Assembly (NCBI GenBank): GCA_965248925.1
Contig: CBDFLE010000006.1
Location: 640,001 to 704,000 of the forward strand
Direction of reading: 5' to 3'
Origin: Candidatus Multivoradales bacterium
GTDB taxonomy: Bacteria; Acidobacteriota; Thermoanaerobaculia; Multivoradales; J023
Length of the DNA stretch: 64,000 nt
Part shown: piece by piece, positions 7,480 to 12,889 of the stretch
Layout: every line of letters starts with the position of its first letter
Position numbering within the stretch: position 1 is the stretch's first letter
Program-made: the position numbers and the translations under genes
Notes under the pieces: model-generated
The model's input: the letters and a program-made list of their open reading frames with translations, nothing else
What the model was told of the DNA's origin: nothing
The model's database searches: none

Positions 7480-7754
7480 GCTACTTCTCCAAACGCTGGT
7501 TCGCCCGGCCACTCCCTGGCGGCATCGCTGATCGCGATTCGGGCGGATGCTGGTTGCGCCGTCATGCTTCTCGGTGCAAGGCGGGTCAGGGACCCCGATC
7601 CGGGCGCACGAATCTCATGCACCAGACGGCGAAAGCGGAACTTACCACGGCCACAGAACCCCGGTCAACGAAGATCCGCTATCATCGGCCCACCGAGTCG
7701 GCGGCATGCATCTGACCGCCATCGGCCACCCGTCCGACCCTAGGAGGCGAACCC

Positions 7755-7928
7755 TTGAGCGAGGGCCCCGACTATCTGATCTGCCTGGAATGCGAGACTC
7801 CGTGCTACACCTTCGAGTGGAAATTCGGCGATGTCATCGCGGCCCAATGCCTGGTCTGCGGCAGCGAAGACGTCGATAGCTTCATGATCGAAGAAGACTA
7901 CGAAGTAATGAGCACGATGGACCACTGA
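7755..7928 (+). CDS. Small acidic zinc-ribbon protein (57 aa), below the ORF track cutoff
   Basis: AGGAGG RBS then TTG; MSEGPDYLICLECETPCYTFEWKFGDVIAAQCLVCGSEDVDSFMIEEDYEVMSTMDH with two CxxC pairs. Confidence 0.75.
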   Translation: MSEGPDYLICLECETPCYTFEWKFGDVIAAQCLVCGSEDVDSFMIEEDYEVMSTMDH

Positions 7929-8069
7929 GGGCTGCGACGGCTACCGCGCCTGGGGATCGAAGGCTGGTTTCCAGCCGACGGACCTCGTGCTAGACTTGCC
8001 ACCCGAAAGTGGCCGAGGCAGCCAAAGCGCACGACAACGCAACCGCTCTCGCCAACAGACCATTTTGCC

Positions 8070-8555
8070 ATGAATCTCGAAGACCTCCGCACCGTGCATC
8101 CAGTGCTTCAGTTCTGCCCCATTGATTACGCAATGAGCGCGGCTTTGGCGTTGCAGACCGCGGGGCACGAGCCCGTCGTGAGCTTGCAGGTCAACGACCG
8201 GCCTGACGAGACGCTCGAGTGGACCAGCCGGGCCATCGAGGGATCAGCGTGGGATCCCGTACGAACCATTGAGGACGGAGCAGAGGGGGTGGCGCTTCGA
8301 TGGGTGCATCACGATGGCAATTGGGTGGTTTCACGTCGAATGCGTCGTGGTGAACATGCGGATTGGCTGTTACATTTCAGGCAGACATTCCAGGCCCTCG
8401 AGGTCAGCGGTACCGGTACCTCGAGTGAATCCACCGCACGCCTGACAAAGAAGCTGGCACAAGTCAGCCGGTGCCCGCTTCCAGTGAAGCGAATGGCGGT
8501 CGTGGTCTCCTTCGAAGAGCCGGCACTGCAATCGGCAGTCGCGGAGGAGCTGTGA
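8070..8555 (+). CDS. Putative PD-(D/E)xK-like nuclease
   Basis: Helix EDGAEGVAL, then ADWLL and LEVSG (ExS variant of ExK), then RLTKKLAQV helix and AVVVSF strand. Confidence 0.6.
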   Translation: MNLEDLRTVHPVLQFCPIDYAMSAALALQTAGHEPVVSLQVNDRPDETLEWTSRAIEGSAWDPVRTIEDGAEGVALRWVHHDGNWVVSRRMRRGEHADWLLHFRQTFQALEVSGTGTSSESTARLTKKLAQVSRCPLPVKRMAVVVSFEEPALQSAVAEEL

Positions 8556-8983
8556 GTTTCACGGCCCTACAGACCACAGCTATCGAAGCGCTCGTAAGCG
8601 GGGCCATTCTGCGGGCAGAGCTGCTCGACGACGCTGGCCTTGCCACGGCCCGCGATGCCTGGCGGGAGGTGATGGAGTTGGAGGTCGAGCTCAGCAGCAG
8701 GCATCCTGCCGGGTCGGTGCCAGGTGGGGTGGCGCGCGCGGGTGCGGTGCATGCTGCTTTCGCCGCAGGTGCCGATGGGTGGGATCTTGCGGATCGGTTT
8801 CTGGCCGAGCAGGACCTGCCGAAGGAAAGGAGACAAGCGATCACTACGGTGATCGCGGAGCACGAAGAGTGTTACTCTTCACAGTTTCCCCGACTAGCCG
8901 AGATTCACTCTGCCCGAGCCCTAAGTTCCTGGAAGCACGCGCTTGCGCAGGCCCCCTTGGCTCTGTTCCCTGTCGCGGCCTGA
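8552..8983 (+). CDS. Small all-helical (TPR-like) hypothetical protein
   Basis: GGAGGAG RBS; GTG start overlaps the upstream stop (GTGA); amphipathic helical pattern. Confidence 0.7.
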   Translation: MSFTALQTTAIEALVSGAILRAELLDDAGLATARDAWREVMELEVELSSRHPAGSVPGGVARAGAVHAAFAAGADGWDLADRFLAEQDLPKERRQAITTVIAEHEECYSSQFPRLAEIHSARALSSWKHALAQAPLALFPVAA

Positions 8984-11184
8984 TGGAATCCGTCGCGTTC
9001 TATTCCTACAAGGGGGGAGTCGGACGTTCGCTGCTCGTCGCGACCACGGCGCGTTTCCTGGCGATGTGCGGTCGCCGTGTCGTGGCCCTCGACTTGGACC
9101 TCGAAGCTCCTGGGTTGACGTATAAATTCGGCCTGCCAGAAGCCCCCGCCGGCGCCGTGGATGTCCTGACGGCGATCCTCTCAGGCAGCGACAGTCCGGA
9201 CCTCTCGGAGATCGCGATGCCGGTCGCTCTGCCCGGCGACAGCGGCTCACTTCTCGTGCTTGCGGCCGGAACGGCGCCATCGACGGCTTATTGGGCACAG
9301 GTGGCCGCGCTGCACCGGCCGGCGTATGGCTCCCGAGGCGGCATCGTCGAGGCGGCTCTGGAGTTCCAGGCCAGGATCGCGTCCGAACTCACCCCGGAAT
9401 ATCTTCTCATCGACGCCCGCACCGGCGTGAGCGAGTTCGGCGGCCTCGCGACCACGGCGATGGCGGACCGGGTGGTGCTGGTCTGCACCCGCATACCCGA
9501 GAGCGTCCACGGCACCAGCGCGGTTCATCAGGCCCTGAGATCGATGCCCACCCTGGCGGGCCGAGCGCAACGCAGCCTGGAGGTGGTGGTGTCCCGCTCG
9601 GCGCCTGGGCAGCTCGTGGGCGACGACGAGCTGAAGACCCTCTTCGGTTCCTGGTTCGAGCTTCCACACGATGCCCGGGACGGTGCGATCGAGCGCACGG
9701 CCAAGGTTGCGTCGCGTCCGGTAGTGAGCGAAGGTTGGACGGCCGGTGAGATCACCGGCACCGCGGGCAAAGTCGATTTTCCGAAGTCGCCTCAATCCCT
9801 ACTCGCTGAATCGCTTTCCTGGGTCGGTCGGACCTTTACGAACCTCGGAGCCCGTGCCGACCAGGCGCGCCGTCGGCTGCTCGAGATCGATGCCGCGATC
9901 GATGATCTCACTCGACCGGTGATGCGGCTGGGGCCGGTCCTGCACGCCCGACCCGCCTGGGATCCGGCGGCGATCACCAGGAGCTACGCTGACGGCGAGC
10001 GCACGGCGGACCTGGTCATCCACCACCCTCACGGCAAAGTGGGGGTGGTGCTGGAGTACGTCGATGGTGAAGACCCCGCTGCCGTGGCCAGGGCATGGTT
10101 CCTGGGGACCTCGGCCCGGATCGTCGTGATCCGCGGCCCGAAGTGCGCGAGATTCGGGTGGGCCGATCGGCAGGTGCATGACTTCCATGGTTACGCCGGC
10201 GGTTACCGTCTCCCCCTGCCTCACGACCTCGAACTGCTGGAGCAGCCCGCGGACTTCAGCCTGAAGAGCCTGCTCACCGCGGTGCATCGCACCCGCCTTT
10301 ACGACGGCGAGATCTTGAGCCATTGGGCCCAGCTGAACAATCTCGGCATCGATGGCGGTAGTCCAGGGGATCGGCAGAGTACCGCCCTCGTGTTGGACAC
10401 CGTTGCCGGCATGGACGACGCGGAACGCTTCGCCCAATTCGTCGCTTGTGCGGCCAAGCTCCACGAGCCCTGGGTCGAACGTCAATTGATCGGCCAGGAA
10501 CCCATGCGGCGGCGCGCCCTGACCGAGCTCGTCGCACCGCTGGTCTGGCGTGGGCCGCCCGCTGCGCTGGCCCGGCTGTCCGATAGACGGTTCGGCAACC
10601 CCCCACTCCTCTTCGGCCTGCAGTTCCTCGCCCACCACATGGGGCTGCGCTACGATCCCGACGCACTGTTCCGCGACTACAAGCGGCGGCGCGAGTCAGG
10701 CGCGGGTCGGTGGATGGAGCTCCGTTTCAACTGGCAGGAGGCAGCCGACACCACACCTGCCCGGTACGAGGCGGAAACGGGCACCGTCCACCTCGAGGGT
10801 CTGGCGATCCAGGAAGCCGCCGACCGGGTCGGTACCCCGCCGCGGGCATTGGGCAGCGTCCTGTCGATGATCCAGGCCGTTCGCGGTCTGCTCCATGTGG
10901 CGACTGACCTGGACGGCCAGCCGTGGCGAGGCGCTCCACGCAGTGAAGCTACGCAGGTGGTGCATGCCCTCGTTGCTGCGGTGGTTGACCGCGTCCTCGA
11001 CACCCTGGCCGACCCTGGCCTGCGTGCTGCTTTCGAGGTCGCTGATGCGCTGCATCCGCAAGGCCACGGGGCCTGGCGAGGCTTGCAGAAGGCGTCCAAT
11101 GAAGCTCTGCACCACGCGATCCTCACGCTCCGACGAGGCCATGCTCCCACAATGGCTCTCGATGCCGCGCTCGATCGCCGCTGA
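8983..11184 (+). CDS. KGGVGR-variant ParA/MinD-like ATPase with long C-terminal extension
   Basis: ATG overlaps the upstream TGA (TGATG); FYSYKGGVGRS, DLDLEAPGL, LLIDARTG; about 450 aa C-terminal region with ADLVI..VVLEY. Confidence 0.85.
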   Translation: MESVAFYSYKGGVGRSLLVATTARFLAMCGRRVVALDLDLEAPGLTYKFGLPEAPAGAVDVLTAILSGSDSPDLSEIAMPVALPGDSGSLLVLAAGTAPSTAYWAQVAALHRPAYGSRGGIVEAALEFQARIASELTPEYLLIDARTGVSEFGGLATTAMADRVVLVCTRIPESVHGTSAVHQALRSMPTLAGRAQRSLEVVVSRSAPGQLVGDDELKTLFGSWFELPHDARDGAIERTAKVASRPVVSEGWTAGEITGTAGKVDFPKSPQSLLAESLSWVGRTFTNLGARADQARRRLLEIDAAIDDLTRPVMRLGPVLHARPAWDPAAITRSYADGERTADLVIHHPHGKVGVVLEYVDGEDPAAVARAWFLGTSARIVVIRGPKCARFGWADRQVHDFHGYAGGYRLPLPHDLELLEQPADFSLKSLLTAVHRTRLYDGEILSHWAQLNNLGIDGGSPGDRQSTALVLDTVAGMDDAERFAQFVACAAKLHEPWVERQLIGQEPMRRRALTELVAPLVWRGPPAALARLSDRRFGNPPLLFGLQFLAHHMGLRYDPDALFRDYKRRRESGAGRWMELRFNWQEAADTTPARYEAETGTVHLEGLAIQEAADRVGTPPRALGSVLSMIQAVRGLLHVATDLDGQPWRGAPRSEATQVVHALVAAVVDRVLDTLADPGLRAAFEVADALHPQGHGAWRGLQKASNEALHHAILTLRRGHAPTMALDAALDRR

Positions 11185-11470
11185 CTGTTCGTCCGAGTGG
11201 CAGAGAGTAACTTGGCTAGTCCTCCCAGGCTCGCCGGGGGTCTGCATCATCCAGGCGGATCTCGGGTAACCCAGTCTTTCTGCCGTGGTCTAGCAGGCCA
11301 GAAAAACGGCGCGGGCCACACCTCATATTCCGGCACATGAAGAACTCTTCGCGACATGAGTTATTGGTGGATCCAGATCGGTAGGCCAAGATCTGCTCAG
11401 TAAGTTCTCTGGACACCTGCCGCTCAACCCAAGCCCCTGGGCAACGACTTTACAGGCCCCTCAGCCGCGC

Positions 11471-12889
11471 TCAGCCGCGCTCAGGCAAGCCCTGGATGGG
11501 GATCTGGCCGGTGACCGTGGTGGCATCTTCCTCCCCCATCGCCACCGCTAGACGCAACCGCAGTACGGCACCACCTCCGGGGGCCAGATCGGCCTCTAGA
11601 TGAGCGTCGTGGGCCTCTGCGATTCGCCGCGCTATCGCCAATCCCAATCCGGTGCCGCCCTTGCGCTGCGAGTAGAACAATTCGAAAACTCGCTCGCGCT
11701 CTGCGGCTGGGATGCCGGGCCCGTTGTCGACGATCTCGAGCAAGACTTCCTCGGGAGACTCGATGCGGGCCACCAAGCGCACCCGCGGCCGGGACTGTCC
11801 AGCAACCGCGAGCAGAGCGTTCTGGGTCAGGTTGAGCAGCAACTGGCCGATCTGCGCTGCGTCAACTTCGACCCTGGCTCCACCACTACGGTCGTCAATC
11901 GTGACCTTCACCGCCCGAGCTTGAATCTCACCAGCCAACACCTCGACCACTCGCCGCAGCAACTCGATCGCAGTCACCTCCCGACGCTCAATCTTCGGCG
12001 ACCGGGAGTAGGATAGAAAATCGCCCGCCAAATGCTCCAGGCGACGAATCTCAGATCGAGTGATCGACAACAGGCGCTCGGAGGATGCCGAGCCCCCGGT
12101 CTCCTGGGCCTCTTCTTCGAGCATCTGCATATTCAAGCTGAGGGAGTTGAGCGGACTGCGAATCTCGTGTGCCAAACCGCTCGCCAAAGTGCCGATGTAA
12201 GCCATCCGCTCAGCTTCGCGCGCTTGCTCTTCGAGCTGACGGGTGCGCAGAAATAAGCGCCACACCGCCACGTACGCCACTGCCAGCAGCAGCAGGGTGA
12301 GGCCGCCAATCAGCGACGCCTGGCTGATCAGGTCGCGGCGCAAGCCGGCAATCCGCCGCTCGATTTGCTGCTTGCTGATGCCGATCACCAGAGTGCCTAG
12401 TTCGCCGATCGGCAGCTCGACTTCTTCGAACAGCCGATCACTACCGGCGAAGGTCTCAGGCAACTCGCCGATATCAACCCGGGTCACCGTGCGCACTTCG
12501 TCGCTATCTGCCGACCGGCTCTCCTCTCGGCTCTGCTTGTAGACCACGGTTCCTTGGGGATCTCGGATCTCGACCCCGCGCACGATCTCTCGCTTCTGCA
12601 GTAGAGCCTCTAGATTGCGAGTGTAGGTCTGCCGATCTTGCACCGTAGAAACCACCACCCAGAGGTCGGCTTGTCCCAGCTTGTCGGCTTCCGCTTCAAG
12701 TTCACGAACCAACGGAGCGGCTTCTTCTCGCGTCTCGACTAGAGCCCGCTCCATGAAGCGCTGCGATAGGCTATTGACGATCAACCAGCCGAAAAGGGCG
12801 ATGTCGAAAGCAATGAATAGGCCGAGCACAACCGCTGCCAGCAAGAGCTTCCTCGAGCGCGACCGTCGGGCATGCAAGAAACCAGACAT
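11471..12889 (-). CDS. Membrane sensor histidine kinase (HisKA/HATPase)
   Basis: Two TM helices, LAHEIRSPL H-box, NLTQNA N-box, DNGPGI, GGTGLGL. Confidence 0.93.
   Translation of the reverse strand: MSGFLHARRSRSRKLLLAAVVLGLFIAFDIALFGWLIVNSLSQRFMERALVETREEAAPLVRELEAEADKLGQADLWVVVSTVQDRQTYTRNLEALLQKREIVRGVEIRDPQGTVVYKQSREESRSADSDEVRTVTRVDIGELPETFAGSDRLFEEVELPIGELGTLVIGISKQQIERRIAGLRRDLISQASLIGGLTLLLLAVAYVAVWRLFLRTRQLEEQAREAERMAYIGTLASGLAHEIRSPLNSLSLNMQMLEEEAQETGGSASSERLLSITRSEIRRLEHLAGDFLSYSRSPKIERREVTAIELLRRVVEVLAGEIQARAVKVTIDDRSGGARVEVDAAQIGQLLLNLTQNALLAVAGQSRPRVRLVARIESPEEVLLEIVDNGPGIPAAERERVFELFYSQRKGGTGLGLAIARRIAEAHDAHLEADLAPGGGAVLRLRLAVAMGEEDATTVTGQIPIQGLPERG

Follow-up and report, generated by a model that had tools for sequence, protein, structure and literature searches.

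A candidate three-gene conflict module joining a restriction-endonuclease-fold protein to a KGGVGR-type ParA ATPase in a Candidatus Multivoradales bacterium

Introduction

A role for ParA-type ATPases as recurrent switches in immunity has been proposed only recently, and from comparative genomics alone. In their preprint of 22 October 2026, Li, Burroughs and Aravind define an immune ParA branch, ConB2, which is marked by an arginine in place of the Walker A lysine and by the residues PG after sensor-1 (bioRxiv 10.64898/2026.10.19.760177). As described in the main text of that preprint, ConB2 includes ternary 'TA-ParA' systems, in which a toxin-antitoxin pair is accompanied by a ParA protein fused to a C-terminal sensor. 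The toxins fall into six types, among them a restriction endonuclease (REase); the antitoxin is typically a helix-turn-helix (HTH) repressor; and the sensor is of the TPR, SAVED, inactive metallopeptidase or NACHT type. In the proposed logic, the ParA switch reorganizes the toxin-antitoxin pair when an invader is sensed (bioRxiv 10.64898/2026.10.19.760177). Here, we describe a 3.1-kb locus that resembles these systems, encoded in a 64,000-nucleotide stretch of DNA (the window: positions 640,001 to 704,000 of contig CBDFLE010000006.1, assembly GCA_965248925.1) from a Candidatus Multivoradales bacterium of the phylum Acidobacteriota. Its three open reading frames encode a nuclease-fold protein (ORF1), a small helical protein (ORF2) and a multidomain ParA-like protein (ORF3). 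The locus had been singled out as a candidate defense operon in a preliminary reading of the DNA made without database searches (the sequence-only reading).

Judged by the main-text description, which gives no detail of the REase subtype and no accession, the locus shares with the TA-ParA REase subtype its three linked genes: one for a predicted REase-superfamily toxin, one for a partner protein and one for a ParA that carries the Arg and PG marks together with a C-terminal sensor region. An 'inactive MPTase' (metallopeptidase) is listed among the TA-ParA sensors, and the logic in which a switch frees a toxin is the same. The window locus differs from that description in its three-part ORF3 tail (nuclease-like, helical and zincin-like), in a zincin-like domain that is not uniformly inactive across the ORF3 family, and in a partner, ORF2, that lacks the HTH of the typical antitoxin. 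From its sequence, the trio is best filed as a well-delimited new member of the computationally defined TA-ParA class; other ConB2 systems named in the main text (PCTM, ParA-wHTH, APE and HINPO) do not fit it. The sequence-only reading had taken the architecture to be one without a name. That claim is out of date, because the preprint's main text describes both the class and the same gating model. A word search of the literature returned no paper for KGGVGR and none for PDC-M28, a PADLOC system considered below.

Results

ORF1 is predicted to adopt a PD-(D/E)xK nuclease fold

ORF1 (positions 8070 to 8555, plus strand; 161 amino acids) is the predicted effector or toxin of the locus. It matched no Pfam or NCBIfam family, and a search against sequence profiles from the PDB returned nothing. 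Its structure was considered through an AlphaFold2 model, computed from an alignment with 22 relatives, which had a predicted local distance difference test score (pLDDT) of 94.1 and a predicted TM-score of 0.91. In the model, a helix (residues 63 to 83), three strands (86 to 90, 99 to 103 and 106 to 115), a second helix (118 to 132) and a last strand (140 to 147) form an alpha-beta-beta-beta-alpha-beta core at approximately residues 61 to 161, which is preceded by an extra N-terminal subdomain of 60 residues. Foldseek gave no match to this model at E ≤ 1e-3. The top rows of the Foldseek and VIA searches were all PD-(D/E)xK nucleases, and those at the head of the Foldseek results were HincII (1.4e-3), the SPARDA nuclease (TM-score of 0.48 on the query), MGME1 and Hjc.

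The motifs of ORF1 are E72 within the first core helix, HADWLL (residues 96 to 101), ALEVSG (109 to 114) and the group K127, K128 and Q131. Residues E72, R89, R90, E95, D98, E111, S113, G114, R124, K128 and Q131 are invariant in the alignment of relatives. The canonical D...(D/E)-x-K motif is thus incomplete: D98 and E111 are invariant, and the lysine position is taken by the invariant Ser113. K128, on the helix after the motif, may replace the missing lysine. Compared with small PD-(D/E)xK nucleases such as archaeal Hjc, the lambda-type alkaline exonuclease core and the HsdR N-terminal domain, ORF1 stands apart in having no sequence-family match, a serine for the motif lysine, an invariant Lys128 and Gln131 on the following helix, and the additional N-terminal subdomain. 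The model and its structural neighbors support the assignment, already made in the sequence-only reading, of a restriction-endonuclease fold with serine at the canonical lysine position; the protein may be catalytically competent.

Members of the ORF1 family also occur in other settings. In two loci (L093:4863-6549, minus strand, and L094:5783-7467, plus strand), an ORF1-family nuclease (E of 8e-20 and 2e-17, respectively, to the ORF1 profile) overlaps a gene for a different protein of 382 amino acids, which belongs to no Pfam family and whose two copies are 32% identical; the G+C content at third codon positions (GC3) of both genes is below that of the flanks. The two genes seem to make up a module of their own, in which an ORF1-type nuclease is used again. 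The 382-amino-acid protein was considered as a long form of ORF2, which the profile comparison did not support (hhalign E of 0.4). In a further locus (L096:3438-6480), a gene for an 895-amino-acid ResIII/SNF2-type helicase is followed immediately by an open reading frame of 117 amino acids, whose match to the ORF1 profile is limited to the N-terminal 80 positions.

ORF2 is a helical protein predicted to bind ORF1

ORF2 (positions 8552 to 8983, plus strand; 143 amino acids, GTG start) is an all-helical protein and the predicted antitoxin or adaptor. In an alignment of 14 sequences, V15, A18, I19, R21, A22, E23, G58, A61, R62 and G64 are invariant. No Pfam or NCBIfam family matched ORF2 above threshold, the Pfam rows being far below it, and there was no usable match in the ESM Atlas.

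The ORF1-ORF2 pair was modeled as a complex and scored by the interaction prediction score from aligned errors (ipSAE). The pair scored 0.83 (0.85, 0.83 and 0.83 in the individual runs), whereas the highest of three controls reached 0.43. In a benchmark of this score, 58 of 80 solved complexes and 2 of 110 mismatched pairs came up to that mark, figures that hold only roughly here, since custom alignments were fed to the ORF1-ORF2 model. The partner had a pLDDT of 83 or more, and the runs shared at least 98% of their contacts. On the ORF1 side, the modeled interface consists of residues 11 to 18, 87 to 93 (including the invariant R89 and R90), 95, 100, 102, 107 and 136 to 139; on the ORF2 side, it consists of residues 9 to 24 and 56 to 68 and makes use of the invariant N-terminal helix. 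The model supports the proposal that ORF2 is a helical partner that binds ORF1; it speaks for binding and not for inhibition. The charge asymmetry of classic toxin-antitoxin pairs was uninformative as a clue, as both proteins are acidic (isoelectric points of 5.5 for ORF1 and 5.1 for ORF2) and the values vary among relatives.

ORF3 carries an arginine-variant ParA ATPase domain

ORF3 (positions 8983 to 11184, plus strand; 733 amino acids, ATG start) is a multidomain protein predicted to act as a ParA-like switch. Residues 1 to 230 (positions 8983 to 9672) form an ATPase domain with the ParA/MinD (SIMIBI) fold and a variant KGGVGR motif: Walker A reads KGGVGRS (residues 10 to 16), the sensor-1 DLD is followed by EAPG (DLDLEAPG, residues 37 to 44) and Walker B reads LLID. 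The adjoining linker, residues 233 to 269 (positions 9679 to 9789), is disordered, with a pLDDT below 50, and varies in length in the alignment. Residues 2 to 185 scored 127.1 bits (E of 1e-36) with NF047398 ('KGGVGR-motif variant AAA ATPase'), whose cut-off is 90, and ORF3 is the best match to this family in the genome. NF047398 covers only the ATPase domain, assigns no function, and is silent on ORF1, ORF2 and the ORF3 tail. The AlphaFold2 model of ORF3 had a pLDDT of 79.7. Searches with the whole 733-residue model by Foldseek (PDB and BFVD) and VIA-align gave only ParA/MinD-type matches, at residues 1 to 288, and sequence profiles from the PDB matched only the P-loop. BFVD rows for a phage 'Endonuclease' (E of 0.05) and a 'Zinc-binding metallo-peptidase' (E of 0.12) were too weak to use.

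Relatives of ORF3 numbered 151 at E ≤ 1e-3, of which approximately 100 were full length. Across 26 aligned sequences, K10, G11, G12, G14, R15, D37, D39, P43 and G44 are invariant, as are D144, R146, T147 and G148 of the motif DARTG (residues 144 to 148) and five positions in the tail. Every motif that the sequence-only reading had quoted for ORF1 and ORF3 was present, and because most of them are invariant across relatives, they are not chance resemblances. ORF3 also bears both ConB2 marks given in the preprint's main text, with R15 in place of the Walker A lysine and P43 and G44 after sensor-1. Together with the NF047398 match, these marks support the view of the sequence-only reading that ORF3 belongs to the KGGVGR ParA-type ATPases, in a clade associated with biological conflict.

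In comparison with the ATPases of ParABS and MinCDE systems, which have the canonical KGGxGK[ST], ORF3 has an arginine in the P-loop, a 500-residue tail and a rare, patchy distribution, and the trio has no ParB, MinC or MinE partner. As initially stated, neither parB nor minCE is found in the window. The only ParB_N (PF02195) matches in the genome are at C6:2685866 and C5:819000, both outside the window (C6:640001-704000) and both adjoining an ordinary ParA, and neither MinE nor MinC_C matched anywhere in the genome. These results agree with the claim that ORF3 is neither a plain partition ParA nor part of a MinCDE system.

The proposed comparison with PADLOC gave a divided answer. The ATPase domain of ORF3 matched PDC-M28B (2.1e-23), while ORF1 and ORF2 matched no PADLOC model at E ≤ 1. 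Identity with PDC-M28 was rejected, given these two negatives and a match confined to positions 130 to 336 of the 438-position PDC-M28B model.

A second KGGVGR-type ATPase is encoded in the same genome (C5:423815-424495, minus strand; locus L088). It matched NF047398 with 123.3 bits, above the cut-off, and lies within an open frame of 1718 amino acids.

The ORF3 tail ends in a degenerate zincin-like domain

The sequence-only reading had correctly noted a long extension after the ATPase domain; its estimate of about 450 residues falls short of the approximately 500 found (residues 233 to 733), and it missed the C-terminal zincin-like domain. The first tail segment (the middle domain, residues ~273 to 405; positions 9799 to 10197) is made up of a helix and a beta-rich part, in the order alpha-beta-beta-beta-alpha-beta. 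It holds the motifs ADLVI (residues 342 to 346) and VVLEY (355 to 359), and in the model D343 and E358 lie on consecutive strands. R340, A342, D343, E358 and W372 do not vary among relatives, and the ExK position lacks a lysine. In one relative (P0014), residues 329 to 372 gave a sub-threshold match to HSDR_N_2 (E of 0.053). The second nuclease-like domain suggested earlier for this segment thus stands in part: the topology is compatible with a degenerate nuclease-like domain, and the basis for it is the modeled secondary structure and the one sub-threshold Pfam match. The middle domain is also the only basic segment of ORF3, with an isoelectric point of 8.99. Paralogy of ORF1 and the middle domain was rejected at the sequence level; comparison of the middle, helical and last segments of ORF3 with the ORF1 alignment gave hhalign probabilities of at most 0.2%.

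The next segment (residues ~411 to 577; positions 10213 to 10713) is a helical domain of no known family. It is followed by a domain formed by a small sheet and helices (residues ~581 to 733; positions 10723 to 11184), which is zincin-like, i.e., metallopeptidase-like. The family consensus HExxHAxxHLGxDxDG corresponds to IQAVRGLLHVATDLDG in the window copy, with IQAVR at the HExxH site, and the downstream HE..Q (consensus HETLAQ) corresponds to HALVAA. The same holds for close relatives, in which the two sites read [IV]QA[VI]R and HALVA[AT], i.e., the domain is dead. Because IQAVR and HALVAA replace the catalytic sites, the window domain is filed as a degenerate relative and not as an active peptidase, a judgment made from these residues. 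In the ParA-fused family as a whole, HExxH is kept in 47 of 116 zincin-like domains (e.g., in L001 to L003, L023 and L041), in contrast to the 'inactive' sensor of the TA-ParA description, and 46 of the 47 also keep the downstream glutamate; the set of 116 is drawn from proteins P0003 to P0122 and 12 locus proteins, some of which may duplicate each other.

Searched against 1.84 billion entries, a profile of the tail (residues 272 to 733, from 13 loci) picked up 965 representatives at E ≤ 1e-3; their number fell to 276 at E ≤ 1e-10 and to 66 at E ≤ 1e-30. The last ~150 positions of the profile form a separate domain, which is present in many other protein architectures; in 131 instances of it among the representatives, HExxH was found in 82, and 11 were gapped at that point. 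The helical and zincin-like parts together (profile positions 177 to 540) are fused to SIR2_2 in four proteins (P0168, P0169, P0170 and P0186), and in P0156 a TCAD9/APH kinase-like region carries a whole ORF3-type tail. The zincin-like domain alone follows HEAT repeats in P0199, P0210, P0225, P0226 and P0237, and in P0241 it comes after a STAND-type NTPase, with nSTAND_NTPase5 scoring below its cut-off.

No Pfam family matched the zincin-like domain at threshold. Among 24 short members, sub-threshold Pfam matches pointed to SprT-like (5/24), Zincin_2 (4/24), M91 (4/24) and M1 (4/24), and the best match of the domain family among PDB profiles was 3cmn_A (E of 0.2). The domain is called zincin-like and not assigned to a named family because all zincin matches in Pfam are sub-threshold and 3cmn_A is reached only at that E value. 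For ORF3 residues 270 to 733, no usable match was found in the ESM Atlas.

The three genes are strictly linked and rare

The coordinates and overlaps given for the locus in the sequence-only reading were correct. The ORF1 stop and the ORF2 start overlap as GTGA, with GGAGGAG just 5' of the ORF2 GTG at 8552, and the ORF2 stop and the ORF3 start overlap as TGATG (ATG at 8983). A listing of longest open reading frames puts the starts of ORF2 and ORF3 further upstream; the starts used here are those of all relatives in the alignments.

Relatives of ORF1 and ORF2 were found directly upstream, in the same order and on the same strand, at all 15 loci with a full-length ORF3 relative. The predicted co-occurrence as a trio was therefore observed throughout. 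These loci are the 13, out of 80 related loci, in which the match reaches well past the ATPase domain (the other 67 lie outside this set), together with L083 (genome G012) and L095 (genome G394). In the 13 examined trios, genes 1 and 2 overlap by 4 or 11 bases, with 1 to 5 bases before gene 3. The weakest ORF2 matches were those at L041 (2.5e-7) and at L023, with a BLASTP E of 0.041, yet full length in the ORF2 alignment. At five loci with only the ATPase (L082, L084 to L086, and the L088 locus described above), no ORF1 or ORF2 relative was found within approximately 1.5 kb.

The trio hosts belong to at least four phyla and include Acidobacteriota, Burkholderiales, Verrucomicrobiota and two lineages of Actinomycetota (Acidimicrobiales and Solirubrobacteraceae). 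Among 41 related genomes, full-length ORF3 was detected only in the window's own genome (G000) and in G012, and a survey of 401 genomes from the phylum turned up the trio in two. Across these 401 genomes, the ORF1 profile matched in five (the two trios, two with the different 382-amino-acid partner and the partial copy beside the ResIII helicase), and the ORF3 tail profile matched in four (two in full, one of the SIR2 type and one with the last domain only). In four loci (L002, L006, L008 and L023), the GC3 of the trio is 0.1 to 0.25 below that of the flanks.

Directly upstream of one trio lie genes for an Eco57I-like methylase and a PLD-SNF2 helicase (L003:14-4917), and a gene for a TIR-domain protein lies approximately 4 kb downstream of another (L006:12871-14241). 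When 90 flanking open reading frames of the 13 loci were pooled, one of them, whose locus was not traced, matched the PADLOC models of Argonaute-associated TIR proteins (1e-145).

Sequence context of the locus in the window

Upstream, the trio is flanked by rplU, rpmA and obg on the minus strand, and downstream by a histidine kinase gene, also on the minus strand, as had been noted for rplU and the kinase. A scan of positions 7500 to 11600 for promoters and terminators found no sigma-70-like site and no plus-strand terminator 3' of ORF3. A TAGAAT-like hexamer (TAGACT at window positions 7991 to 7996) lies 20 to 75 bases 5' of the first gene, and is also seen at L001, L002, L007 and L010; it could be a shared -10 element. 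Between rplU and ORF1, positions 7755 to 7928 (plus strand) hold an open reading frame of 57 amino acids with two CxxC pairs and a GC3 of 0.78. It was considered as a fourth component of the operon and rejected, as no relative was found near other trios; it is probably unrelated to the operon.

Discussion

We propose that the locus is a self-contained three-gene conflict module, a candidate anti-invader system of the TA-ParA type, with ORF1 as effector, ORF2 as its brake and ORF3 as sensor switch, and we put the probability of this reading at roughly 55%. In such a module, ORF1 would be a small PD-(D/E)xK nuclease with a lethal or growth-arresting effect, and ORF2 would bind it and keep it harmless or tethered. 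ORF3 would act as a dimerizing nucleotide switch of the ParA/MinD type, with arginine for the P-loop lysine, and its tail of ~460 residues, composed of the degenerate nuclease-like, helical and dead zincin-like domains, would sense a signal of invasion. Nucleotide switching by ORF3 in response to the signal would then reorganize the ORF1-ORF2 complex and free the nuclease. In favor of the proposal are the linkage of the genes at every locus with a full-length ORF3, their sparse distribution, the folds of ORF1 and of the ATPase domain, the ConB2 marks, the complex model, the recurrence of the tail domains in architectures of an immune type, the published class and the lack of partition partners. 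The toxicity of ORF1, its neutralization by ORF2, the signal of the tail and any anti-phage effect are inferred, and the toxin-antitoxin-plus-sensor idea of the sequence-only reading is a reasonable one.

Several observations weigh against this proposal. Clear defense genes were found within 6 kb in only 2 of the 13 examined loci, where most flanking genes are housekeeping genes; enrichment of homologs in defense islands, which the sequence-only reading had named as a check, was not seen in these flanks. The GC3 of the window trio (0.68 to 0.78) is no different from that of its own flanks. In the complex model, the confident contacts exclude E72, D98, E111 and K128, and occlusion of the active site was not seen; moreover, the control that scored 0.43 kept ORF2 with an unrelated protein, which may point to some stickiness of ORF2. 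ORF2 also showed neither an HTH nor any other antitoxin family, unlike the repressors typical of TA-ParA antitoxins in the preprint's main text, and the TA-ParA class itself rests purely on computational work (bioRxiv 10.64898/2026.10.19.760177).

The uncovered catalytic residues would also suit a rival model in which ORF2, instead of inhibiting the nuclease, serves as an adaptor between it and ORF3. In that case, ORF3 would recognize and coat invader DNA through its basic, nuclease-like middle domain and ParA multimerization, and the nuclease would cut the bound DNA without killing the cell. Interception and coating of DNA have been proposed for other ParA systems (bioRxiv 10.64898/2026.10.19.760177), the middle domain is the one basic segment of ORF3, and the partner slot appears exchangeable, because the ORF1 family also pairs with the 382-amino-acid protein of L093 and L094. 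However, the middle domain has no complete catalytic or known binding motif, so that its binding to DNA is a prediction, and the preprint's main text places trios of REase, partner and ParA in a toxin-antitoxin class; we regard tethering as unlikely, though plausible enough to keep in view. A further idea, which we consider unlikely and which does not appear in the main text of the preprint (bioRxiv 10.64898/2026.10.19.760177), gives the zincin-like tail the task of removing the ORF2 brake. Where HExxH and the glutamate are kept, ORF2 would be cleaved under ParA control and the nuclease thereby freed, by analogy with ImmA/IrrE-type peptidases, which cleave their repressors. In the window lineage, the dead domain would keep hold of ORF2, or of something that mimics it, as a pseudo-enzyme, and release would come only from the nucleotide switch and the binding of DNA or a ligand by the nuclease-like domain. 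If true, the family would combine a toxin-antitoxin pair with a built-in antitoxin protease under the control of the switch, and that protease would have decayed to a pseudo-protease repeatedly.

The patchy spread across phyla, the lowered GC3 at four loci and the mostly housekeeping neighbors would equally suit a three-part toxin-antitoxin cassette that persists through post-segregational killing or by spreading selfishly and plays no part in defense. Against this, neither an integrase nor a transposase was found among the 25 most frequent of 118 Pfam families matched in the 90 flanking open reading frames; the tail domains are common to SIR2, STAND-type and TCAD9 architectures typical of immune systems; and a simple addiction module would not usually bear the cost of a large regulated NTPase. 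We consider this explanation improbable. Finally, the core-gene neighbors (rplU, rpmA and obg) and the lack of a compositional anomaly in this genome might suggest a housekeeping ParA for chromosome partition, positioning or DNA repair, with two accessory proteins. A trio present in so few of the sampled genomes of the phylum and of the closer relatives, and spread over at least four phyla, argues otherwise, as do the canonical ParA-ParB pairs elsewhere in the genome and the replacement of the Walker A lysine by arginine, as in the immune branch of the preprint's main text. We consider a housekeeping role very unlikely.

Beyond this locus, the zincin-like domain is widespread, has no name, and is common to SIR2, HEAT, kinase-like and STAND-type proteins, which makes it useful for annotating candidate immune genes. 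Under the conflict-module reading, two details are worth following: a peptidase-like tail that is alive in some lineages and dead here, and a non-HTH partner that is predicted to bind the nuclease. As a compact unit, strictly conserved across at least four phyla, the trio is a practical first test case for the TA-ParA class, and it also offers a confidently modeled nuclease, a predicted partner interface, and natural variants with intact and dead peptidase-like tails. It could show whether a ParA switch gates a toxin, and what the tail senses.

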